DNA of 64,000 nt from an uncultured delta proteobacterium (GCA_963803975.1 CAWDOY010000003.1:160001-224000); one strand, 5' to 3'. Numbered from the stretch's first letter, positions 30,276 to 43,936 are shown. Program-made: numbers and translations. The notes: generated by a model from the sequence alone, not told the origin.

Positions 30276-33200
30276 ATGAAAGTTATTATTAGGATTGCAT
30301 CATTGTTCTGGGCGGTGGTGTTCTGCTTCATTACAGTACATACGGCGCATGCTGCTGATATATCGGTGCGTCTTCTGAATGAAACACCGGATGGTTTGGA
30401 CATGGATGTTACCATATCCAACTATTCCCTCATAGCATCTCCGTATCAGTCATATCAGAAAATTGTGATACAGGGATGCGGTAGTAACGCCCGGGAAGGG
30501 GCACCGGGCGTGTCACTGAGGGGTCAGCTCATTGAATTGCCGGAAGGAAGTGAACTGGCAGTCTCGTATCAGTCTTTAGATAAAATAACCCTGCGCAACG
30601 TATTGCTGGCTCCTGCTCCTGGTGCGATCGTTGAGGAGGATAAAGCCGGCTCAAAACAGCTGAGCGAACAGTACCGTATCGATGAAGCAGCCTATACAGC
30701 AGATGCCTTTTACCCGGGTAAACTTGCAGCTGCAGACTTTACCGGTTACTTGCGTGACAAACATATCGCAAACATTATTTTGTATCCGGTTCAGTATAAT
30801 CCGGTTGCAAGAACGCTTGAAATTCATACTAGATATAAAGTTCACCTGCGATTTATCAGTATAGAAAAAGACGCAGGGAAAAATCAGCTAACAGATTATA
30901 GAGCAGCGAGCAGATTGGAAAACACGCAGCAGAACACTTTTAGCACTCTTTATAAAAAAGTGCTGCTCAATTATAAAGCAGAAGGCGGCAACCTTTCACA
31001 ACAATCAGATTTACAACTATCGAGTACTGTTCGCGCACCGTCATTACAGACAGAAAACAGCCCCTTTGCGGTGAGGGTAACGCTGAAGGATGAGGGGATT
31101 TACAAGGTCAGTTACGACGATTTAAATGCATTGGGCATTGATTTAACAGCTGCCACCAACGAGAATATCAAAATGGAAAATCAGGGCAGGGAAGTGCCTG
31201 TGTATCGCAGCAGTTCCGGTCCTTTCAAGGCTGGTGATTACCTTCTGTTTTATGGGGAGCCGTTCAAGTCGCTCTACAGCAAGAGCAATGTATATTGGAT
31301 CTACCGGGGCTCTGGTGCCGGGAAAAAAATAGAACAAATGCCGGCCGGATCGTTTAACAGTTCAAATGTTCAGCAGACCTTTAACAGCAGCTATCACGGA
31401 GAGGTGGATAAAAAATACTGGGAATCAATTCCCAATGGCGCGAATGTTGATCACTGGTTCTGGGAGAGTCTTCAGCCTACTGAAATCAACACTGCCAAGG
31501 TAGTATTATCTCCCCCGGCACACCTGGGAAACATAAGCACCGCCGGCGGTACTTATACCATGAAGGTTAATTTAAGAGGGGAAACGACACTTGCTCACCA
31601 TACCAGGGTATATGTCAATGGTACCGTTGTTGATGACTTCACCTGGAACGGACAGATTGAATACACTAAAACTATTCCAGCCATCACTCCCACGGTATTT
31701 AAGAATGGTGACAATGCCATCCAAATAGAGGAAGTGCTCGATCCGGGAACAACCGTGGACCGGATTTATATAAACTGGTTCGATATCACCTATACAGCTG
31801 CCTATGTTGCTGAAAGCGATATGTTGAAATGTAGTGGCAGCAGTTCCGGCAACGCATCATTAGAAATTAAAAAATTCACTACTAATAACATCTGGGTATT
31901 AGACATCACCAATCCCCTAACCGTCACAAACGTTACCAATACACAGATAACAGAAAGCGGCGGTCAGTATACTATTGCGTTTGGCGAGCCGGGATCGGGA
32001 AGCAAAACCTACATGGCTGTTGCAGCAAGTAAATTCAAAACACCAGCTGAGATGGTTGCGGATGAAATTTCAAATCCTCTTCTTCAGTCACCTCGAACGG
32101 ACATCGACTATATTATAATAACACACGAATTGTTTTTTGATGCCGTACAGGATTTGAAACAGTACCGGGAAGATAAAGGACACCGAGTTGAAGTCGTCAA
32201 AATCCAGGATATCTATGATGAATTCTCCTATGGGATAAAAGACGCTCGCGCCATAAAGGACTTCTTAACGTACGCCTACAATAACTGGAACAGTACCGGT
32301 CATCCCACCTATGTACTGCTGGTGGGTGATGCCAGTATTGACTACCGTGATGATACTGGTAATTTTGCCAAGGGTAATGTTGATTTTGTACCTACGTATC
32401 TTATTCAGACTTTTACGCTCGGGGATACACCCACTGATAACTGGTTTGTTTGCGTAAATGGAACGGACCTTCTTCCTGATATGTTTATTGGGAGGATGTG
32501 TGTCAAGACGGTAACTGATGTTACCAGTATTGTAAATAAGATAAAAGCATATGAGCAGGGCACTGCCGGCACGTGGACTAAAAAAGTTATTTTAGCATCA
32601 GATAATGACACCGCTTTTGTTCAAGCTTCTGATGATCTAATAAAATTGCTGCCAGCCAATTATTCTGCAGAAAAGGTATATTTGAATGACTATGCTAATG
32701 TAGAAGCTGCAACCAAGGATTTAGTGAACAAGATAAATGACGGCAGCCTGCTGACTAATTATACCGGTCATGGCTCTGTTGACAATTGGGCTGGAGAGTT
32801 CCTTTTTCACACAACCGATGACAAGGATCAACTACCCCGCAATGATGTTGAACTGCTAACCAATGGGGACAAACTTACCTTCGTTATGACCCTGAACTGT
32901 TTGAACGGGTTTTTCCCTAATTTTCTTGACAAATATTCACTTGCGGAGGAATTTGTACGGGCAGAAAATAAAGGCGCTGTTGCCTGTTTTGCTCCTACGG
33001 GCCTGGGTTTTACTTCTGAACATGAGGTGTTGGCTAACAAGATGTTTAACCTCCTGTTCACAGAGGGGATAAATGTCGCCGGTAATCTTGTTACGTCGGC
33101 GAAAATTGCCGCGTATACAGAGATACAAGCCTCTGATCTCGTTGAGACCTTCGTTCTTTTTGGTGACCCGGCCACGGAACTACAGACAACGTCTGTTTCA

Positions 33201-33532
33201 TCTGCAATTAAACTGCTCAGCCCCGAAGATGAAGCTGTGCTGCAAAGGTTTACCCGGTATACATTTACCTGGGACGATACCAAGAACATGGACAAGTATA
33301 AGCTGGAGTTTTCATCAGACCCGGCATTTCCGGTCAATAAGATTATGAGTGCTCCGTTATTAAAGGCCCAGTTTATCACCGCGAAGGAATATACGCCAAA
33401 CTTTTTATCAGGTTTATCCTCAACATTATGGGCATGCAGAATGAAAAATTATACTGGCGTGTCGTGAGTTACGGTAACGGAAACGAAATTCTGGAGTATT
33501 CTCAATACCGCTCATTCTCCATTAAAAAATAG
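30276..33532 (+). CDS. Secreted C25 family (gingipain-like) cysteine peptidase with propeptide; frameshift near 33405
   Basis: Signal peptide, propeptide FYPG...LYPVQYNP, DYIIITH, IYDEFSYG and YVLLVGDA, and catalytic NYTGHG and LNCLNG. The shifted tail LYWRVV...YRSFSIKK* ends at 33532. Confidence 0.88.
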
Positions 33533-33538
33533 ATTGCT

Positions 33539-34081
33539 ATGCAGGACGTTAAAGAGCAGTTCATAGAATTGTGGAAGAAAAGCGGCCAGGAGAAGATTTT
33601 TAAAATACGCGGAACCAGCATGCTGCCGCTTATCCGGGAAACAGATGCCATTGGCGTTATACCCATTCGGCAGACTGAAGAACTGTGCATCGGTGACATT
33701 GCCCTCTTTCAGAGGCCTACCGGGATGGTCGCACACAGAATTGTTGGTAAATTCAGGAAAGACAATATTACGTATCTCTACGAGAAAGGAGATCGAGGCG
33801 TCGTACCAACAACTATTTCCGGCGAGATGTTGATAGGAAAGGTGGTGCGGATTTACCGGCCGGGGAATACGATAGACTTGACCAGCAGTCTATGGCTGAT
33901 TACCAATCGCAGCGCCGGATATTACTGGTACTATCTTAATGCTGTTTTTAAGCTCTTCTCTATTAGTAAGAAAAAACTGTTCGGATCTAAAAAATTTCCG
34001 CACATGAGCTCTGCCTTCAGTAAAATCTACCTCTTGCTCAGCGCCCTCCCAAACTGGATGTTTCGCCGCAATAATAGGTAA
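33539..34081 (+). CDS. S24/S26 signal peptidase I-like protein
   Basis: IRGTSMLPLI...GDIALF...VAHRIV...EKGD (Ser-His type). Confidence 0.8.
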   Translation: MQDVKEQFIELWKKSGQEKIFKIRGTSMLPLIRETDAIGVIPIRQTEELCIGDIALFQRPTGMVAHRIVGKFRKDNITYLYEKGDRGVVPTTISGEMLIGKVVRIYRPGNTIDLTSSLWLITNRSAGYYWYYLNAVFKLFSISKKKLFGSKKFPHMSSAFSKIYLLLSALPNWMFRRNNR

Positions 34082-34098
34082 CGGGTAACTTTAAATAA

Positions 34099-34923
34099 TT
34101 AATAGTGGGTAAGACTGCCATCACGCTTTGCCAGACGAATGGCATACTGGAAAGAATAGATGCTGACGGGCATGAGTATTGCGGTAAAAAGGAGCAAAGA
34201 AAATATGCTGGGTAGAAGATTGTAAAACGACGCGCCTTTGATCAGGGCAAGGCGCATCCCTTCCAATGAATACGTGATGGGAAGAAAATACGAAAAGGGT
34301 TTAAGCCAGGATGGAAGGATACTGACCGGATAATAGACGCCGCCCAGCAGCCAGCTGATACCATTAAAAATACTCGCCACCGGATCCCCCTTCTTCAACA
34401 CCATGACAAAACTCGCGGACAAAATTCCAAAGCTGCTGAAGGCTATTATTGATATTAATAAAATTACCACAGCGCCTGCATAATTAGCGCGGGAGAGATC
34501 AAGGCCATAGACAAAGACGCCTATAATAATGAAAATAATAACGCGCAGCGTGGTGAACAAAAAGCTGTAGACTGATGAAGAGATGATGATCGTTGGAATT
34601 TCAGTCTGTGTGACCAGCAGGGCTTCCAGCGTTCCCATAATCTGTCCCTCGCGAATGCTTTGTGACAGGCTGTTCAGAGACACGCTGAGATAATAATTGA
34701 AAGCTATCCCAATCAGCACAAAGGCAAAATAATCGCCCCCGTACTCGGCAAGCTGCGGCATCTGTGCAGTGCCGAGCAGTTTTGAAAGGAAAAAGAAAAC
34801 GCTGACATTGATGAAAATGCCGAAAACCTGCAGCAGAAAGGAAATCCGGTAGCTTATCTCGGTCTGAAAATCACGTTTTACAAAGGCAAAAAGCTTTTTT
34901 AAAAAAAGTATCATCTCCTGCAT
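34099..34923 (-). CDS. ABC-2 type exporter permease
   Basis: Six hydrophobic helices, GTLEALL and GGVYYPVSILPSWL...LPITY. Confidence 0.9.
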   Translation of the reverse strand: MQEMILFLKKLFAFVKRDFQTEISYRISFLLQVFGIFINVSVFFFLSKLLGTAQMPQLAEYGGDYFAFVLIGIAFNYYLSVSLNSLSQSIREGQIMGTLEALLVTQTEIPTIIISSSVYSFLFTTLRVIIFIIIGVFVYGLDLSRANYAGAVVILLISIIAFSSFGILSASFVMVLKKGDPVASIFNGISWLLGGVYYPVSILPSWLKPFSYFLPITYSLEGMRLALIKGASFYNLLPSIFSLLLFTAILMPVSIYSFQYAIRLAKRDGSLTHY

Positions 34924-34926
34924 TGC

Positions 34927-35913
34927 TCACCTATCCTGAGTATCTTCGATTACCCGTGTAAATACGTCATCAAGAGAAATTGTTTGCAGCGTGCATTCTT
35001 CAACAGCTCCCTCGTGGCTGATAATGTCATGTATGACGTGCGCGATGTTTGTGGATTCTATGTAAAATGCAAGCGGTTCATCAGGAACCGGCAGTATGCG
35101 GTCGGCACTGGTAAGTGAGCCAAGATCAGTAAACCTTGAATTTCTGCTGAGCCGCAGGATATAGCTCCGGTCCGACTTTATCTGGGCCTTAATTGAATCG
35201 ATAGGTCCGCAGGTTTTAATTATCCCGTTATTGATAATGGCTACGTGGGTACAGAAATCTTCCGCCTCATAGAGATTATGTGTCGCCAGCAGGGCGGTCC
35301 GGTTGTGCTTGCAGACAATCTCTTCTTTTATGAATTTTCTCAAATGCCGTGCAGAAAGCGGGTCCAGGCTGCGGGTGGGCTCGTCCAGAAATATAATGGT
35401 AGGGTCAGACAGGAGCCCGCGGGCGATTGCCAGGCGCTGTTTCATCCCGGTAGAAAAGTCGCTGAACCGCATGTTTGGGTCATTATCAAGCTCGGTAATA
35501 TGCAGTACTTCATCAATACGTCGTTCCTTCTCAGGGGAGGAAAGATTATTAAGAGTGGCAAAGAATGCAAGATTCTGCCGGGCGGTAAGTCGCCAGTAAA
35601 AGCTGCGCTCGTCATTGACAACAAGGCCGATTGACTGCCGCACCTGCCGGTGCTGATGGACTACATCAAACCCATTGACGCAGGCTTTACCCGCTGTCGG
35701 CAGGACCAGCGTGGATAATATTTTAATGAGGGTTGTTTTGCCTGCCCCATTCGGCCCGAGCAGTCCAAAAAAGCTGCCCTGTTCAATTTTAAGATTAACA
35801 TCCTCCAGCGCTACGGTATACTGCTTTCTGAACGGGTGCAGCGCTAAATCCTTATAACCCTTAATCTTCGGATAGTGTTTCGTCAGATTGAAAGTTTCAA
35901 TTACAGCCGTCAT
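34927..35913 (-). CDS. ABC exporter ATP-binding protein
   Basis: GPNGAGKTT, FSTGMKQRL and IFLDEPT. Confidence 0.93.
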   Translation of the reverse strand: MTAVIETFNLTKHYPKIKGYKDLALHPFRKQYTVALEDVNLKIEQGSFFGLLGPNGAGKTTLIKILSTLVLPTAGKACVNGFDVVHQHRQVRQSIGLVVNDERSFYWRLTARQNLAFFATLNNLSSPEKERRIDEVLHITELDNDPNMRFSDFSTGMKQRLAIARGLLSDPTIIFLDEPTRSLDPLSARHLRKFIKEEIVCKHNRTALLATHNLYEAEDFCTHVAIINNGIIKTCGPIDSIKAQIKSDRSYILRLSRNSRFTDLGSLTSADRILPVPDEPLAFYIESTNIAHVIHDIISHEGAVEECTLQTISLDDVFTRVIEDTQDR

Positions 35914-36150
35914 AAAGCGAAATGCTGTACAGGTTAATAAAAAGGGGATAAATTAAATTCGTATATCAGGAACTAACGGAGGAAATGGTTATGCTCATCT
36001 GTTTGTCTTTGCACTATTGTATGTAAAACTATCATGTTTTCAAGCAAAATTATAGAAATATCTTGCAGTTAGTAGGTTATTTCGTTATATATTTTTAGCT
36101 GTTGAACAGATCTGCCGGATAAAAACTTATTTTCTGCAACTAAACCACTT

Positions 36151-38454
36151 ATGAACAGTGAAGTGACACCAGGACCAATACTTCCCCAGGGCAGCAACGG
36201 GCAGCTCAGGGAACAGACGCGGCGCAAACGCGAGCGCCTGATTATTTTAATAGTGGTGGTTCTTGTGGTGCTGCTCACTTTTTTACTCACCTATGTTTCG
36301 GGCCTTGAAGGAGAGATTCTGAAGCTGCAGAACTTTCTGGTGTTTGGCCTCATTAACATCAATGCAATTCTGCTGCTGCTGCTGGTGTTCCTGGTTGTCA
36401 GAAATATCGTAAAACTTTTTTTTGAACGCAGGCGGGGAATTCTCGGCTCTAAGCTGAGGACCAAGCTGGTCGCATCATTTGTGGGGCTGTCGCTGGTACC
36501 GACGCTGCTGCTGTTCTGGGTTGCCATCGGTTTTATTACCAACACCATTGAAAACTGGTTCAGCTTTGAAGTGGAGAGTTCCCTTGAAGAGTCGCTCGAT
36601 GTCACCCAGGTCTATTATAAACGCGCTGCCGACAATGCCCTCCATCTGGCCAGGCAGATAAGTAAGACCATAAATGAAGAGGGGCTGCTGAACGATAAAA
36701 AGCTCGGCGATCTTAAACGCAAAGTAGCTGAGAAGCAGTATGAATACAACCTGGCGATGGTAGAGGTTTATTCAGCACAGGGCAGGGAACTGGCACGCTC
36801 AGCTGATCCGAATATACCGGAACTTAAATACCTTGATCCGGATGCTGCGTTTGCCCAGGAGTCTGCCCAGGGAAAGGAATTGACGCGCATTCAGCCGGTG
36901 GGCGCAGGGGATATCATCCGGGGAATTGTCCCCGTCTATGCAGCAAGCACCCCCGGGTATGTCAACGGTATACTAGCCGTCAGCTATTACGTACCGGAGA
37001 GCCTGGTGTCACGGGTCGAGAAGATATCCTCAGCATTCCAGGAGTACAAGCAGCTCAAGCTTTATAAAAAACCCATAAAGCTTATTTACATCATTATGCT
37101 TTCGGTCATTACCCTGCTGATTATTTTTTCCGCAACCTGGTTTGGATTTCACCTTTCAAAAGTGCTTACCGGCCCCATAGGTGCGCTTGCCGAAGCAACC
37201 GAACAAATTGCTCATGGAAATCTCGATGTGCAGATTGTCCCGACGACAGATGATGAAATGGGAAGTTTAGTAAAGTCTTTTAACAAGATGACCATAGACC
37301 TTAAGGTGAGTAAAGAGCAGATTGAAACTGCAAACATAGACTTGAAGGATAAAAACCAGGAGCTTGACCAGCGTCGCAGCTATATGGAAATTGTCCTCAA
37401 TAATGTAGCTGCCGGTGTATTGTCAGTGAACCGGGAGAATATTATTACCACCTTTAATAAATCGGCAGGGAAAATATTAAATCTGCATATGCAGAACGCT
37501 ATCGGGAGCCCCTATCAGCAGGTTCTGGCCCCGGAGCCGCTCAAGGAACTCCGCAGTCTTATACAGGAAATAAACCGCTCTGGTCTGAGCACGACCGTGC
37601 AACAGATACGTCTTTCTTTTCCCGATAAGGCCACTCATCTGCTGGTTCGGGCCACTATTCTGCGGGATGAAACAGGGGATTACCTGGGAGTGGTTCTGGT
37701 GGCTGAAGATGTCACCGATCTGCAGCTTGCTCAGCGTGCCTACGCCTGGAAAGAGGTTGCCCGCAGAATAGCCCACGAAGTAAAAAATCCGCTCACGCCG
37801 ATAAAGCTGTCTGCCCAGCGGCTGCGCAAAAAGTTTCTCGCGCACATACCGGCTGATGATACGGTGTTTGATGAATGCACCAGGACCATTATAAATCAGG
37901 TGGATGAATTAAAAACGCTGGTAAATGAATTTTCAAACTTTGCCCGTATGCCGGCGACCAACCCGGTGCCGAATGACCTGCATCTGATCATTGATGAAAC
38001 CATGATGCTGTATAAGGAGGCACATAAGAAGATAACCTTTGAGATTACCCGGGATCCTGCAGTTCCGCTTCTCATCATCGATCGAGAGCAGATGAAGCGG
38101 GCACTAATCAATATCCTTGACAATGCCATACACGCAATGGAAAATGAAGGGCGGATTACTATTATCACCGCCTACAACAAAATTCTTGAGATGGTGACCC
38201 TGGAAATTGCCGATACCGGCTGCGGTATACCGCCCGAAATCAAGCACAAGCTGTTTGAGCCCTATTTTTCAACCAAAAAGAGCGGCACCGGCCTGGGCTT
38301 GGCAATTGTTAATACCATCATCTCAGACCATAACGGGTATATAAGGATTCGCGATAACGAGCCGCGGGGTACCCGCTTTATTATTGAACTGCCGGCCCAT
38401 ATCGATGAAACTGCCGTTTATCCTGATTCCGAGAGACTTCATCCGGAGATATGA
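36151..38454 (+). CDS. NtrY-like membrane sensor histidine kinase (HAMP, PAS)
   Basis: GSKLRTKLV, HAMP DEMGSLVKSFNKM, H-box AWKEVARRIAHEVKNPLTPI, and N/G boxes NILDNA, DTGCG and GTGLGL. Confidence 0.92.
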   Translation: MNSEVTPGPILPQGSNGQLREQTRRKRERLIILIVVVLVVLLTFLLTYVSGLEGEILKLQNFLVFGLININAILLLLLVFLVVRNIVKLFFERRRGILGSKLRTKLVASFVGLSLVPTLLLFWVAIGFITNTIENWFSFEVESSLEESLDVTQVYYKRAADNALHLARQISKTINEEGLLNDKKLGDLKRKVAEKQYEYNLAMVEVYSAQGRELARSADPNIPELKYLDPDAAFAQESAQGKELTRIQPVGAGDIIRGIVPVYAASTPGYVNGILAVSYYVPESLVSRVEKISSAFQEYKQLKLYKKPIKLIYIIMLSVITLLIIFSATWFGFHLSKVLTGPIGALAEATEQIAHGNLDVQIVPTTDDEMGSLVKSFNKMTIDLKVSKEQIETANIDLKDKNQELDQRRSYMEIVLNNVAAGVLSVNRENIITTFNKSAGKILNLHMQNAIGSPYQQVLAPEPLKELRSLIQEINRSGLSTTVQQIRLSFPDKATHLLVRATILRDETGDYLGVVLVAEDVTDLQLAQRAYAWKEVARRIAHEVKNPLTPIKLSAQRLRKKFLAHIPADDTVFDECTRTIINQVDELKTLVNEFSNFARMPATNPVPNDLHLIIDETMMLYKEAHKKITFEITRDPAVPLLIIDREQMKRALINILDNAIHAMENEGRITIITAYNKILEMVTLEIADTGCGIPPEIKHKLFEPYFSTKKSGTGLGLAIVNTIISDHNGYIRIRDNEPRGTRFIIELPAHIDETAVYPDSERLHPEI

Positions 38455-38511
38455 TGTCAGGGATCGGAGACGGAAGACCGGCGGCACTAATGCAGTGAAG
38501 GATAATAAACG

Positions 38512-40701
38512 GTGAAAAAACCAACCATACTTCTGGTAGATGACGAAGAAGCAATCATAAAATCGCTGTCCGGCAGCCTTGAGGATGAAGGATATGCGCT
38601 GTTGACCGCACAGGACGGAAACGCTGCCATGGAGATAATTAAGACGCAGCCGGTGGACATAGTATTTCTTGATATATGGCTGCCCAGCATGGACGGCCTG
38701 GAAACGCTCAAGGCAATTAAAGAGTATGATCCGTCCCTGGAAATTATCATGATGACCGGTCACGGCACGGTCAATACAGCGGTGCAGGCGGTTAAGCTGG
38801 GAGCGTTTGACTTTCTGGAAAAGCCTTTTTCCCTGGACACTGCCCTGGACATAATAAAAAAAATACAGGGCAAGCGGCAGATTTCCATGAAGACCATGCG
38901 CTATTATGAATCCATTAAACCTGACCGCAGGAAAGTTTTAATCGGTGACAGTCCCGACGCGATTGCCATACGGGACCTCGTTACCTCGTGCGCTGCAACC
39001 GGTGAGCATATTTTAATCCAGGGGGAAACCGGGGCCGGAAAAGAACTTGTTGCGCGGCTTATTCACTTCTCTTCCAGCCGGAAAGAAAGCCCCCTGCTCA
39101 AGTTTAACTGCGCAGCATTCAATGCTGAAGAGATCGAGCGTGAATTGTTCGGTTTTAATGATCCAGAAAATACCGGGATACGGAAAGAAGGTGCTTTGCT
39201 CAGGGCCGGACAGGGGACTCTTTTTATAAAGGCAATCGATCTCATGCCAATGCCGGCACAGCTCAGATTGGCACAGGGTAGTAAGGACCGCTCTTCGCAG
39301 AGTTCAATGCCCCGGATTATTGCTTCTTCCATCAAAGACCCCGACGTTGAATGCAGTGAAGGCCGGCTGCACCGGGAGCTCCTTGCCTGCTTCAATGCGG
39401 AAATGCTCAGGATGCCCCCGCTGCGGAATCGCAGCGGGGATATAGCAGTGCTGCTTAAATATTTTCTGAAATATTTTTGCGAAGAGTACGGGCAGAAAGA
39501 AAAGGCGTTCGAGGATGAAGCTTTTGAGACGCTGATTAACTATGACTGGCCGGGAAATGTCAAGGAACTGAAAAACATGGTAGAAAAAATTGTTGTTTCG
39601 GTTCCTACCAAAAGCATTACCGTGAATGACCTGCCGCAATCGCTGCGCACGGAGATGGAAAACAGTGCTGATCAGCAGTACCTGCGGTACGATACGCTGC
39701 AGGAAGCAGAAAATGCCTGGCGCAAGAACTATCTGCTGTATCATCTGCGCAGAAATAACCGTAACATAGCTGCAACGGCACAGCATCTCCACCTCGGGGA
39801 AGACACCCTGCGCTCATATATTAAACAGTACGGCATTACCCTCATCAGCGGCAGACGGCGCGAGCATAACTATCAGCGCACCCTGAAGCGCAGCATGGTG
39901 CTCAGCGGCCGGGGTCTCCACTCAGGCATCAAGACCGGTCTCATACTGTCGCCGCTGCCTCCAAACAGCGGCATAGTATTCGGCAACATATCCGATGGTT
40001 CAACGATTCCGGCGCATCTTGATTTTGTTGAATCTACTGAGTATGCAACGTCCCTGCGCAAGGGAAACACGCGGGCCAGCACCATAGAGCATGTCCTTGC
40101 TACCCTGCACGCCTACCGCATCAGCAACCTGCTCATAAAAATTAACAATGAAGTGCCCATCATGGACGGCTCAGCGACTGATTTCTGCCAGCTGCTTGAG
40201 GATGCCGGCATTGAAGAACAGGATGCAGAGATTGATGAAATCATTATCTCAGACCGTTACACGATTGGCGAAGTTGCAGCGGACAGAAAGTTCATGGTTG
40301 TTGAACCCTGTGACACCCTGACCATACACTACACGCTTGACTATCCCAGCCCGGTTGGCCGCCAGGAATATACCTTTGTGCTGGAAAATGAGCAGGCATT
40401 CAAAGAACAGATTGCTCCTGCCCGGACCTTCGGCTTTTTAAAAGACATCGAGGCGCTGGAAAAGAAGGGGCTTGCCAGCGGCGGGCGTCTCAATAATTTT
40501 ATACTCATTGATGATGAAAAGATAATTAACACGGAGCTCCGGTTCCCCGATGAATTTGTGCGTCACAAAATACTGGACCTCATGGGAGACCTCTATCTGC
40601 TCGGTCATCCAATAAGAGGTAAAATTACCGCTAACATGACCGGACACACGCAGAACTGCGCGCTGCTTCACCTCCTCCGTGAAAATATCCAGCTCAATTA
40701 G
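38512..40701 (+). CDS. lpxC: Fusion of an NtrX-like response regulator (REC, degenerate sigma54 AAA+, Fis-type HTH) with UDP-3-O-acyl-GlcNAc deacetylase LpxC (from about 39874)
   Basis: REC motifs VDDE/LDIWLP/MTGHG/EKP and AAA motifs GETGAGKE/WPGNVKEL. LpxC motifs QRTL...GRGLHSG, STIEHVLA, EVPIMDGSA, IAPARTFGF, RHKILDLMGDL and TGH. Confidence 0.9.
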   Translation: MKKPTILLVDDEEAIIKSLSGSLEDEGYALLTAQDGNAAMEIIKTQPVDIVFLDIWLPSMDGLETLKAIKEYDPSLEIIMMTGHGTVNTAVQAVKLGAFDFLEKPFSLDTALDIIKKIQGKRQISMKTMRYYESIKPDRRKVLIGDSPDAIAIRDLVTSCAATGEHILIQGETGAGKELVARLIHFSSSRKESPLLKFNCAAFNAEEIERELFGFNDPENTGIRKEGALLRAGQGTLFIKAIDLMPMPAQLRLAQGSKDRSSQSSMPRIIASSIKDPDVECSEGRLHRELLACFNAEMLRMPPLRNRSGDIAVLLKYFLKYFCEEYGQKEKAFEDEAFETLINYDWPGNVKELKNMVEKIVVSVPTKSITVNDLPQSLRTEMENSADQQYLRYDTLQEAENAWRKNYLLYHLRRNNRNIAATAQHLHLGEDTLRSYIKQYGITLISGRRREHNYQRTLKRSMVLSGRGLHSGIKTGLILSPLPPNSGIVFGNISDGSTIPAHLDFVESTEYATSLRKGNTRASTIEHVLATLHAYRISNLLIKINNEVPIMDGSATDFCQLLEDAGIEEQDAEIDEIIISDRYTIGEVAADRKFMVVEPCDTLTIHYTLDYPSPVGRQEYTFVLENEQAFKEQIAPARTFGFLKDIEALEKKGLASGGRLNNFILIDDEKIINTELRFPDEFVRHKILDLMGDLYLLGHPIRGKITANMTGHTQNCALLHLLRENIQLN

Positions 40702-40787
40702 AAAGCTCTTTAGAATCAGCTTTCAGTTTTCAGCACCTACTGTCGCATGATAAAAGAGCGCAAGCGCGTGAGGGTATTACGAATACT

Positions 40788-41315
40788 ATGAGCGAAAGAG
40801 GATACGTTCACGTATACACGGGAAACGGCAAGGGCAAAACGACCGCTGCCCTGGGGCTCGCATTCCGTGCCAGGGGACGGGGCATGCGCTCATATATAGC
40901 GCAGTTTATGAAAGGAGTTGCATACGGGGAGGTCGAGGCGGCAGCGCAGGTTGCCCCGTGGATCATCATTGAGCAGTTTGGCCGTGACATCCGGGACTGC
41001 GTCAATGCGCAGTATGCTGATACAGATGTCACGATGGCCCGCACTGGCTTGAAAAAGGCGGAGCAGGAAATGCTCTCAGGCACGTACCGGATTGTGATAC
41101 TTGATGAAATAAACGTTGCCCTGTACTATAACCTGGTTACCATTCAAGAGGTGCTGCATTTTATACGTAAAAAGCCCTGTGAGGTAGAACTCATACTGAC
41201 CGGGAGATATGCACCTGAAGAGGTACTGAAAGCTGCCGACCTGGTTTCAGAAGTTGTTGAGATCAAGCACTATTTTCAGCAGGGCATTCTGGCGCGGGAT
41301 GGAATAGAGCGTTAA
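40788..41315 (+). CDS. cobO: Cob(I)yrinic acid a,c-diamide adenosyltransferase (CobO/BtuR family)
   Basis: VYTGNGKGKTTAALG, ILDEIN, ELILTGR and ADLVSE...KH. Confidence 0.92.
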   Translation: MSERGYVHVYTGNGKGKTTAALGLAFRARGRGMRSYIAQFMKGVAYGEVEAAAQVAPWIIIEQFGRDIRDCVNAQYADTDVTMARTGLKKAEQEMLSGTYRIVILDEINVALYYNLVTIQEVLHFIRKKPCEVELILTGRYAPEEVLKAADLVSEVVEIKHYFQQGILARDGIER

Positions 41316-41316
41316 A

Positions 41317-41380
41317 TCCCTCCTGGCCTCCCCTTTAAAAAGGGAGGGAAATTATATTTCTTTGGAAAGGGGGGTTGAGG
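41317..41380. repeat. REP-like palindromic intergenic element
   Basis: ATCCCTCC...CTCCCCTTTAAAAAGGGAGGG...TTTGGAAAGGGGGG. Confidence 0.4.
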
Positions 41381-41425
41381 AAAATTATCCATGTAACGAA
41401 TAATATTTTAAGAGAAGGGATTTTC

Positions 41426-42082
41426 ATGAAAGTTAACACGATTTTGAATACTGCCTCTCACCGTGAGCTGGAACAGCTTGAAAATAAAACACGCCTTCTC
41501 CTGGTACGCCATGGCGAGCTGGTAACCTCCCGTGAATGGCGGTACGTGGGACATCTTGATGTAGAGCTCAATGAGATTGGAATCGAGCAGATGCAGCGGG
41601 CAGGAGAGCGACTGAAGAGCGAGCAGGTTGACGTTCTTCTGTCAAGTGATCTTAAAAGGACCAGGAAAGGTGCTGAGATTATCGGGACCATGCTGGGACT
41701 TACTCCGCAGTCCCACAGAGAATTCAGGGAAATCAGTTTAGGACAGTGGGAGGGGTTGACCCGTGATGAGATTGCAGCACAGTTCCCTGAAGACTTTGAA
41801 GAGCGGTCAAAGGATCTCCCGCATTACCGAATTAAGAATGGAGAAAGTTTTACTGATTTAAAGAAGCGGGTCATAAAGAAACTGGAACAGACCCTGGATG
41901 AACACCAGGGGAAACGTATCGCTTTAATTGCGCACGGGGGAGTAAATAGAATTATTCTCACGCATGTTCTGGGCATGGACTTATCTCATCTCACGCGCCT
42001 TGACCAGGCATACGGCTGCCTCAATATCATCGACTACTTTGACGGCATGCCAGTGGTGCGGCTTGTCAACAGCACCCCCTAA
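41426..42082 (+). CDS. cobC: Histidine phosphatase, probably alpha-ribazole phosphatase
   Basis: LVRHGE, SSDLKR, REISLGQWEG and AHGGVNR, adjacent to cobO. Confidence 0.75.
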   Translation: MKVNTILNTASHRELEQLENKTRLLLVRHGELVTSREWRYVGHLDVELNEIGIEQMQRAGERLKSEQVDVLLSSDLKRTRKGAEIIGTMLGLTPQSHREFREISLGQWEGLTRDEIAAQFPEDFEERSKDLPHYRIKNGESFTDLKKRVIKKLEQTLDEHQGKRIALIAHGGVNRIILTHVLGMDLSHLTRLDQAYGCLNIIDYFDGMPVVRLVNSTP

Positions 42083-42461
42083 GCATCTTCATCACCACCG
42101 CCGTTATCGTCATCCTGCTTCACAATAGACAGCACCGGCCGTGTCCCCCTTTTTTTAGCGGCTGCTTCTGCAGACCCATATCAATGGCAATCATGAAATG
42201 CTCTTCTCCGTTGATAGTGAACAGCTCACCATTCATTTGTGGAGTGCGCAGAATCCAGGTAATGTCAACCGGCGGCATTACCAGGAGCTTAAAGCTTACA
42301 TCCCACCATTCCTTTTTAACATTTGGCTTAATGTCCAGCACCACCCCGTAGAACAGGCCGGGCTTCATCCCCACCAGAACGACATCACCAGCCGCAGTGC
42401 TTTCCTTGAACGTAATCTTCTTCCTCAGCTCAGCCAGCATTTCTTCAAGAGTCATATACAT
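42079..42461 (-). CDS. Hypothetical protein; frameshift in the homopolymer near 42150
   Basis: 113-aa ORF preceded by a Shine-Dalgarno-like AAGGA. The shifted tail TRPVLSIVKQDDDNGGGDEDA* ends at 42079. Confidence 0.6.
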
Positions 42462-42547: not shown

Positions 42548-43936
42548 ATGCCAGAAAATATTTTCACCTTAGCTGACCTCATTAAATCAGGCTATCGCTC
42601 AAAGACCTCCCGGGACTGCCTGTTTCTCATGGTAAAGACAAAGCTTCAGGCAGGTGAAGAGCTGTTCCCTGATATATTCGGCGTTGAAGCGGAAAAGAGA
42701 CGCTTCATCGAAATTTTAATGAGCGGCAAAGGGGCGCTTCTCACCGGTGAATATGGTGTCGCAAAGACAGACCTGGCAAAGCATATCCAGCTTCTTCTGC
42801 ATGAATATCATACACGGGAAGAGATATATTATGTAGAACAGTGCCCGGTGCAGGAGGACCCGTTGATACTGGCCCGGTTCATGTCGTTGCTCCCGCAGGG
42901 GACCATGCCCTATAAGGCAGACCCCTGTCCGATATGCCGTGCGCAGATACGAGATGTAAACGGCGATCAGGAAAAGATTGCCGTGCGGCGGCTGGACGCA
43001 ATCGTTGAAGGCCGGGGATTTGCGCGTGTTCAGGGCGGGGGCGATGTGCTCCCCGAGGAGATCGTCGGCACCTATAATCTATTAAAGCTTGCGCAGATCG
43101 GCGATCCGTTCGACCCGCGGGTATTTGAGCCGGGGAAAATCGGCCAGGCAAGCAGGGGGCTTCTGTTTGTGGATGAAATCGGCAAGCTCTCTGAATCAGC
43201 CCAGCATGCCCTCATTCAGGCGGCTCAGGAGCACTGCATGACGCCGACCAAGAGCAGGGAGACATTCCCGGTTGACTTCATGCTGGTGGCGACCACCAAC
43301 TACGCTGATGAAGAATACATTTGCGGAGCTGTTCGCGACCGCATGGTGAGCCTGAAGATCCCTCTGGTCGGCATTGAGGATGAGATCCGCATTGTGCATA
43401 AGGAAGTAAGCATCTCTGAGCCGCAGATTTATATACCGCGACTGTTTATCCGGCTTGCCGTTGAAGTAATACGTGCTCTCCGGGGTGATGAACGGCTGGA
43501 GCTTGGCCCGCGCACAAGCATTAACGCGGGCCTCATTGCCCGAAGCTCGGCCCTCCTTGACGGCCGCACCATGGCTGACTATTGTGATGTCAAGGAAGGC
43601 ATATATACGGCAATCCTTGGCAAGGCTCTCTATGAAGACAAGCATGATGTGGAGCGAAAAATTGATGAACTATTCCCTGCTATCTCATCATACCTCGAGC
43701 AGCATATCCCGCAGGTGAAGTTCCAGGAAATTACCGGAGAGTACCGGGAGGAATGGGGAAATGATGCAGCCTGGAGCAAAGACCGGGTGGCAATGATTCT
43801 GCAAAAAAAGAGCGTTTCACAATCCTGGAAGCGGCTGCAACAGAACATTTCAGCCCTTGAGAACCGGGCGCAGGATGAAATTGCGGAAATCATATCCCTG
43901 TATCTGTCAGCCTTTGAGAGAGGGTGCGAAAAATGA
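42548..43936 (+). CDS. AAA+ ATPase (Mg-chelatase I/MoxR-like)
   Basis: Walker A variant GEYGVAKT, Walker B LFVDE, FEPGKIGQASRG and ATTN...AVRDR. Confidence 0.8.
   Translation: MPENIFTLADLIKSGYRSKTSRDCLFLMVKTKLQAGEELFPDIFGVEAEKRRFIEILMSGKGALLTGEYGVAKTDLAKHIQLLLHEYHTREEIYYVEQCPVQEDPLILARFMSLLPQGTMPYKADPCPICRAQIRDVNGDQEKIAVRRLDAIVEGRGFARVQGGGDVLPEEIVGTYNLLKLAQIGDPFDPRVFEPGKIGQASRGLLFVDEIGKLSESAQHALIQAAQEHCMTPTKSRETFPVDFMLVATTNYADEEYICGAVRDRMVSLKIPLVGIEDEIRIVHKEVSISEPQIYIPRLFIRLAVEVIRALRGDERLELGPRTSINAGLIARSSALLDGRTMADYCDVKEGIYTAILGKALYEDKHDVERKIDELFPAISSYLEQHIPQVKFQEITGEYREEWGNDAAWSKDRVAMILQKKSVSQSWKRLQQNISALENRAQDEIAEIISLYLSAFERGCEK

Follow-up and report, generated by a model that had tools for sequence, protein, structure and literature searches.

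LpxC commits the cell to the synthesis of lipid A for the outer membrane. The setting of its activity is a central question of outer-membrane biology, to which the answers known so far vary from one group of organisms to another (PMC12444477). Here, we analyzed a stretch of 64,000 nucleotides from an uncultured delta proteobacterium (GCA_963803975.1, CAWDOY010000003.1:160001-224000; hereafter the window), in which a complete LpxC is joined in frame to the C-terminus of an NtrX-like response regulator, downstream of a gene for an NtrY-like sensor kinase. The fusion is genuine and not an artefact; LpxC as the output domain of a response regulator appears to be a new variation, and the long form found in the window documents the transition to it. 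On the basis of sequence comparison, we lean slightly towards the view that a sigma54-dependent regulator captured its own target, lost its transcriptional machinery stepwise and became a phospho-switch on LpxC. We regard it as moderately probable that, by analogy with CheB, phosphorylation of the receiver by the kinase acts on LpxC as a protein. The kinase gene, the fusion open reading frame (ORF) and its parts are as follows.

36151..38454, + strand: NtrY-like sensor histidine kinase, 767 amino acids (Pfam NtrY_N, HAMP, PAS, HisKA and HATPase_c)
38512..40701, + strand: whole fusion ORF, 729 amino acids plus stop codon, GTG start
38527..38856, + strand: receiver (REC), residues 6-115 (Pfam PF00072, E 7e-32, 110 bits)
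38938..39384, + strand: degenerate sigma54-type AAA+ core, residues 143-291 (PF00158, Sigma54_activat, 86.9 bits)
39424..39675, + strand: AAA+ lid (AAA_lid_14), residues 305-388 (PF25601, E 4e-23)
39706..39843, + strand: Fis/NtrX-type helix-turn-helix (HTH) region, residues 399-444 approximately, placed by the NtrX model, the alignment with 5m7n and predicted helices
39844..39873, + strand: basic linker, residues 445-454 (LISGRRREHN-Y), 10 amino acids
39874..40698, + strand: LpxC domain, residues 455-729 (PF03331, TIGR00325)

An earlier note on this DNA, made from the sequence alone, had described one frame of 729 residues running through REC, AAA+, HTH and LpxC downstream of an NtrY-like kinase. 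This was borne out by the ORF, Pfam and NCBIfam, the HTH being placed by inference; the kinase stop codon lies 57 nucleotides before the GTG start of the fusion, which is preceded by AAGGA at a distance of about 10 nucleotides. The phospho-acceptor of the receiver is D54 (codon 38671-38673), alongside D10, D11, T82 and K104. No HTH family was recognized in the fusion protein by Pfam at E≤0.01, and the HTH was assigned because the NCBIfam NtrX model covers this region, the alignment with Brucella NtrX (5m7n) reaches residue 442 and three helices were predicted at residues 396-439 by AlphaFold2. The NtrX model (NF051870, an equivalog) matched residues 5-442 over its positions 3-452 of 452, with 295.6 bits against a curated cut-off of 600 bits. 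The LpxC part was matched by PF03331 (residues 455-722, profile positions 1-266 of 268, E 8e-85, 285 bits against a cut-off of 27), by TIGR00325 (279.7 bits, above its curated cut-off of 187.25) and by LpxC sequences in PDB (best E 5.6e-52). It stops where the catalytic domain is complete, lacks a C-terminal extension and has the active-site residues E526-H527, T639, H685-K686-x-x-D689, D693 and H712; the zinc and catalytic residues of the E. coli enzyme are E78, H79, T191, H238, K239, D242, D246 and H265. The linker between HTH and LpxC varied in length by no more than one residue in 14 aligned sequences. The claim that no start codon stands just before LpxC also holds: as read by eye, ATG, GTG and TTG are absent in all frames across 39780-39894, and the first in-frame ATG-GTG (39895-39900, M462-V463) lies seven codons into the LpxC domain.

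The earlier note had proposed to look for the same architecture in independent genomes, for a second stand-alone lpxC and for reads across the junction, and all three checks favored the fusion. The genome containing the window (98% complete, an assembly of 57 contigs) gave a single LpxC match, namely the fusion, and possesses lpxA, lpxB and rpoN. Together with 30 relatives it makes up a set of 31 genomes, 25 of which had the fusion; lpxC was unfused in five, and no LpxC was found in the remaining one (87% complete). In each of the 25, the fusion was the sole LpxC (53-98% identity to the window protein), and five further genomes with short or Desulfomonile-type forms (see below) likewise had one LpxC each. 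A sample of 81 genomes from the phylum contained LpxC in 79 cases and a fused LpxC in 18, with AAA+ in six of them and without it in 12; all 15 fusions that had not been seen before were REC plus LpxC by Pfam, and 17 of the 18 genomes had no other LpxC. In addition, a search with the junction region returned 1794 database proteins of 400-1276 amino acids at E≤1e-10, some of which may be other LpxC fusions. The best 120 of these all carried LpxC and nearly all also had REC and AAA+ domains, and their sources give them no name other than 'NtrX' or 'LpxC'.

Words sampled from positions 39400-40300 were recovered to one-half or more in 14 DNA runs from eight studies. Contigs were compared over this region for four runs, two of DNA and two of RNA libraries; both RNA-library runs came from a single study, and their contigs are no proof of transcription. 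Runs that contained little of the stretch (X17-X24) were left out. The contigs of these four public runs showed zero insertions or deletions, and several of them spanned the junction (for example, 39474-40298, 39534-40224 and 39712-40004). It should be noted that one contig of DNA run X2 (depth 2.9, side 42) skips 123 nucleotides in frame (window 39750-39874), that is, 41 codons corresponding approximately to residues 414-454 at the end of the HTH and the linker; this weak, single-contig signal may derive from a relative without these parts.

The opposite explanation is that the frame is an assembly or frameshift artefact, or that its LpxC part is an inactive relic serving as a ligand sensor. 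It could appeal to the 57 contigs of the window assembly and to REC-coding lesions, one each, in three of the 25 fused genomes: a TAG at Q92 in G010 (L021) and frameshifts near residue 46-50 in G013 (L119) and near residue 103 in G014 (L120). The REC sequence flanking these lesions is otherwise well conserved, and they may be assembly errors. Against it stand the fused frame in 24 further genomes and in hundreds of independent database proteins, the bridging of the junction by contigs of four runs, and the position of the fusion as the sole LpxC of a genome with lpxA and lpxB, with invariant catalytic and zinc residues. Such an explanation is hardly credible, and an artefact was rejected on the evidence of related genomes, database proteins and junction-bridging contigs; the fused LpxC is, as judged from the gene content, probably the deacetylase of the cell. 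As a separate observation, lpxB of the window genome (G000:C9:93183-94248) is read in two overlapping frames (profile positions 1-85 and 78-358), a split that might reflect a frameshift or a fault of the assembly.

Comparison of 109 long fusion proteins revealed which parts have been kept and which have decayed. When conservation was expressed as the frequency of the majority residue, LpxC (0.77) and REC (0.75) ranked highest, followed by the lid (0.67) and the HTH (0.66); the AAA+ core was the least conserved domain (0.48), and the linkers were at 0.25-0.34 (0.34 for residues 445-454). Invariant positions included D10, D11, D54 and K104 of the receiver and, in agreement with the zinc ligands (EH, HKxLD) and catalytic His described earlier, E526, H527, T639, H685, K686, D689, D693 and H712 of LpxC, whose catalytic residues were also kept in short forms. 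Walker A residues G171, G174, G176 and K177 were invariant as well, as were R307 and D310, and the AAA+ remnant perhaps still binds nucleotide. The earlier note had treated the AAA+ domain as intact, which proved not to be the case. The second residue of Walker B (position 241) was never Glu in the 109 proteins (S 64, A 33, T 6, G 4, F 1 and R 1), position 240 was Asp in only 46 of them, and the region reads LFIKAI in the window protein versus LFLDEI. GAFTGA was absent from all fused sequences aligned (sets of 14 and 7), and the FREDLY block, which provides the arginine finger, was replaced by variable sequence. Owing to the loss of GAFTGA, the Walker B Glu and the arginine-finger block, the AAA+ module cannot be a sigma54 activator, and its sequence identifies it as a decayed one. 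The kinase has been retained throughout: a kinase ORF (742-798 amino acids) lay directly upstream of the fusion in 16 out of 16 further loci fetched and was also present upstream in L018, L020, L021 and L025. Wherever the region upstream of a fusion was inspected (20 loci), the adjoining kinase was conserved.

Unfused relatives appear to preserve the arrangement from which this system arose. In the five of them (families f3 and f5) and in locus L049, the genes follow the order lpxC, DUF4390, ntrY and ntrX on one strand. Among the four unfused regulators aligned (L014-L017), GAFTGA was kept in three and read GAFAGA in L016, Walker B was LFLDEI in three and LLLDKI in L016, and the FREDLY block and an EEQKFER(V/A)GG loop were found in all four. 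A sigma54 promoter (TGGCAT/AGGCAT-N5-TTGCT) was located 50-62 nucleotides before the start of lpxC in three of four unfused relatives. Since about 15 kb of other upstream sequence contained only three matches at that score under the same scoring, we estimate that the clustering of such sites before lpxC is not due to chance. No sigma54-like site was present at a consistent place before ntrY in any of 20 fused operons, including that of the window. DUF4390 occurred in all five unfused genomes and in only one of the 25 fused ones (G024), and was also absent from the genome without an LpxC match (G028). In G024, the order is DUF4390-ntrY-ntrX::lpxC, a layout that looks like an intermediate. Unfused relatives (L014-L017, L049 and L117) showed a tight linkage of DUF4390 with lpxC and ntrY, and in L084 DUF4390 follows a stand-alone lpxC with a REC-PAS-LuxR regulator upstream in place of ntrYX.

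A circuit of this kind has been published. In D. vulgaris, lpxC is the single target of regulator DVU2934, and in S. fumaroxidans it immediately precedes the operon of the orthologous regulator (PMC3333781). In D. alaskensis, kinase Dde_3000 signals to Dde_3003, a sigma54 activator with lpxC, which has a sigma54 promoter, as its sole apparent target (PMC4045070). On this comparison, the fusion system would descend from an lpxC-dedicated two-component circuit, in which a sigma54 regulator activated a sigma54 promoter before lpxC.

We also examined whether the fusions belong together. A tree was built by a quick search without bootstraps from 63 LpxC domains, namely 22 fused ones, 6 unfused ones of this phylum and every second one (35) of 70 other stand-alone LpxC. 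All 22 fused domains formed one clade (Shimodaira-Hasegawa-like approximate likelihood ratio test 100), the stem of which measured 1.15 substitutions per site, with the unfused relatives of the same class falling on the opposite side of this stem. At 19 positions, some of them in the IDFDHP and KSGH blocks, the fused clade has a fixed residue that is rare in other LpxC. Three architectures occurred in this clade: the window type; the Desulfomonile type of about 700 amino acids, with an unrelated S/T/Q-rich stretch where the HTH would be; and a minimal REC-linker-LpxC protein of 413-479 amino acids, without AAA+ and HTH. A search for the minimal form gave 2373 matches, the best 120 of which all carried only PF00072 and PF03331, and some minimal-form proteins were named Candidatus Binatia by their sources. 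The REC phospho-site was kept in minimal forms, and L025, the sole minimal form whose upstream region was checked, follows an NtrY-like kinase. The sequences indicate a single origin of the fused clade, within which some lineages lost the HTH and many lost both AAA+ and HTH, and the ancestral-looking long form of the window may connect the minimal fusions with the circuit known from Desulfovibrio. The order of losses proposed as part of the captured-target reading would run from the window form through an HTH-less form to the bare REC-LpxC. One minimal form is also of note for its setting: in Deltaproteobacteria bacterium bin116 (L023, G031), with a chromosome of 1.1 Mb, the minimal REC-LpxC is the only LpxC.

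In the mechanism that we propose, lpxC would have been joined to the regulator gene, the sigma54-activating machinery and the sigma54 promoter would then have decayed, and strong constraint would have continued to act on the kinase, on the phospho-site of the receiver and on the active site of LpxC. The kinase would phosphorylate D54 of the fusion receiver, and the phosphorylated receiver would cause the protein to change its conformation or its oligomeric state. In this way it would adjust how active or how available the attached LpxC is, as the CheB receiver gates its methylesterase. In the long form, the HTH may add DNA binding, for example in autoregulation from a sigma70-type promoter. 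Both the phosphotransfer and the effect of phosphorylation on LpxC are what we infer from sequence. Two observations bear on this proposal. First, the kinase, the REC phospho-site and the LpxC active site are kept in every form, which makes the link between receiver and enzyme the conserved one. Second, in minimal forms, which lack AAA+ and HTH, LpxC is the only possible output, and direct control by REC is therefore favored. The idea of direct control had been put forward in the earlier note; it retains the architecture, the adjacent kinase and the catalytic and phospho-acceptor residues as support and loses the intact AAA+ domain.

Structure prediction with AlphaFold2 gave different pictures for the long and the minimal forms. 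For the window protein, the mean predicted local distance difference test (pLDDT) score was 83.7 and the predicted template modeling score (pTM) 0.47, with disordered linkers at residues 125-139, 383-388 and 447-452 (pLDDT <50 at 447-452); within LpxC (455-729), the pLDDT means of 10-residue blocks were mostly 78-96, with a dip to 65 near residues 650-660. For a minimal form of 435 amino acids, the mean pLDDT was 85.6 and the pTM 0.83 despite a disordered linker of 30 residues. As the pTM would have a ceiling of about 0.63 if only LpxC (275 of 435 residues) were placed, the receiver seems to be confidently placed, and the model points to a defined REC-LpxC contact. The short-form model agreed with solved LpxC structures (TM-score 0.83-0.96, normalised by target length; root-mean-square deviation 1.3-2.5 Å), and all Foldseek matches listed for it were LpxC structures, none of them informative about the receiver contact.

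Several points weigh against direct control by the receiver and against the history proposed for it. The model of the long form shows no fixed domain packing and no defined REC-LpxC contact. The lesions in the REC part of G010, G013 and G014, if real, would mean that the receiver is dispensable for LpxC function. In G066 (L131 on G066:C11, and G066:C33), alone among the genomes seen, a stand-alone LpxC (369 bits) occurs beside a REC-LpxC (248 bits); the fused copy reads NMTSHG where others have MTGH. The likeness to the Desulfovibrio circuit is drawn from a synteny remark on S. fumaroxidans and from the gene layout of the unfused relatives. Finally, conservation of the HTH in the long form (0.66) suggests that a transcriptional output may persist there or even dominate.

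The last point leads to a different explanation, namely that the protein is a transcription factor and an enzyme in one chain, in which phosphorylation acts on DNA binding only and LpxC is constitutively active. The HTH would bind the operon's own sigma70-type promoter or envelope genes, and the dosage of LpxC would be tied 1:1 to an autoregulated regulator. Consistent with this are the conserved HTH, which aligns with Brucella NtrX to its end, the independent domains of the long-form model (pTM 0.47), the sigma70-like promoter kept before ntrY in families f1 and f4 and the repression of lpxC transcription by NtrYX in alphaproteobacteria, where lpxC transcripts are lowered (PMC7240162, PMC12444477). 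However, Desulfomonile-type forms have a non-homologous S/T/Q-rich linker in place of the HTH, the abundant minimal forms keep the REC phospho-site with LpxC as the only possible output, an NtrY-like kinase stands upstream of minimal form L025, and no operator was identified in the ntrY upstream regions compared. We consider this explanation rather unlikely.

It is also conceivable, if quite improbable, that the receiver and the AAA+ remnant set the amount or location of LpxC by acting as a phospho-degron, a protease adaptor or a membrane-targeting switch, which would replace the C-terminal degron and the FtsH/LapB route of enterobacteria. The fused LpxC lacks a C-terminal tail, whereas the LpxC frames of unfused relatives (291-336 amino acids) have extensions, and the fused clade stands on a very long stem with its 19 fixed clade-specific substitutions. 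FtsH/LapB proteolysis controls LpxC in enterobacteria; in E. coli, the level of LpxC is as a rule governed by proteolysis, and other routes have been reviewed as well (PMC12444477). On the other hand, no protease or adaptor gene was linked to the operon in the loci examined, and the pTM of the minimal form (0.83) fits allostery at least equally well. Phospho-control of LpxC by its receiver remains the reading that we prefer.

Besides the kinase and the fusion, the following features of the operon region could be recognized in the window.

36063..36091, + strand: candidate sigma70-type promoter, TTGCAG-17 nt-TATATA (by eye, weak), 60 nucleotides before the kinase start
40788..41315, + strand: CobA/CobO-like gene (Pfam)
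41375..42082, + strand: His_Phos_1 (histidine phosphatase superfamily) gene (Pfam)

The candidate promoter scores below the threshold of a consensus promoter scan. A similar layout (TTGCAA-N17-TATAGT or TATATT) stands before ntrY in loci L018 and L020 of family f4, and TTGCA(G/A)-N17-TATA(T/G)(A/T) is the layout common to f1 and f4. Over 35700-42300, the consensus scans for promoters and terminators returned numbers that did not exceed those of shuffled sequences (11 versus 8.2 ± 3.2 and 10 versus 7.1 ± 2.7, respectively), and the terminator scan found no convincing terminator between the fusion and 40788. The CobA/CobO-like and His_Phos_1 genes may be co-transcribed with the fusion. In loci L003-L013 of f1 and f2, the fusion is likewise followed by a His_Phos_1 ORF on the same strand, and in f1 the CobA/CobO-like gene sits between the two. 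No operator could be assigned upstream of ntrY among the upstream regions compared. In family f2 (L103-L115), a conserved AAAAACATAATT...ATTGTCAAG block lies upstream of ntrY, between the operon and the divergent rpmH (ribosomal protein L34); because rpmH is the divergent neighbor in f2, this block may belong to the rpmH promoter. A weaker TTCAAG block is common to the f2 and f1 upstream regions. The neighbors of the operon (window positions 30276-35913 and 42548-43936) are an ORF of 1063 amino acids with a hydrophobic N-terminus, a weak S24-peptidase-like ORF, a divergent pair of ORFs that on inspection by eye resemble an ABC transporter and, downstream, a gene for a PrkA-type AAA protein.

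If the receiver gates LpxC, a membrane sensor could set lipid A flux within seconds, without transcription or proteolysis. This would be a new paradigm, adding a further mode of LpxC control to proteolysis and the other reviewed routes, and one that would operate in about one-fifth of the species sampled in the phylum as well as in other uncultured lineages. The family also forms an unusually complete series, from separate genes with a sigma54 circuit through a fused protein whose activator part is in decay to a receiver and an enzyme alone, which would show how a transcriptional circuit was rewired into post-translational control.

Both two-component control of lpxC transcription and enzyme-output response regulators are already known, and the fusion can be compared with each of them. 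Among the closest systems is that of Desulfovibrio (DVU2931/Dde_3000 with DVU2934/Dde_3003), in which the regulator also consists of REC, a sigma54 AAA+ domain and an HTH; the unfused relatives share with it the S. fumaroxidans layout, GAFTGA and the sigma54 promoter (in three of four). In Desulfovibrio, however, control is transcriptional and the genes are separate, whereas in the window lpxC is fused and the sigma54 apparatus has decayed. With NtrY/NtrX, the system shares the NtrY_N domain of the kinase, a regulator part that aligns with Brucella NtrX (5m7n; residues 5-442, E 4e-62), the absence of GAFTGA in the window regulator as in NtrX and, in unfused relatives, the DUF4390 gene accompanying ntrY. 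It differs in having lost Walker B, which reads LYLDEV in 5m7n, and in the attached enzyme. Among the papers listed in searches of journals outside subscription, we found no description of a REC-LpxC fusion, and the words 'fused' and 'fusion' do not occur in the review of LpxC regulation (PMC12444477). Stand-alone LpxC has the same catalytic residues and, according to the predicted models, the same fold as the fused enzyme; the latter differs by its missing C-terminal tail, the 19 clade-specific substitutions and the covalently attached receiver. Another LpxC fusion, the bifunctional LpxC/FabZ (NCBIfam NF009667, against which the window LpxC part scores 215 bits with a cut-off of 465), carries a C-terminal fatty-acid dehydratase, whereas the partner in the window is an N-terminal signaling module. 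Response regulators with an enzymatic output include CheB, PleD/WspR (REC-GGDEF) and RpfG (REC-HD-GYP). CheB-like regulators combine an N-terminal receiver, a flexible linker and a C-terminal enzyme with a kinase, and the layout of the minimal REC-LpxC is identical. The window form differs from them by the AAA+ remnant and HTH between receiver and enzyme, and all REC-LpxC proteins have as their output an enzyme of an essential biosynthetic pathway rather than a signaling enzyme.

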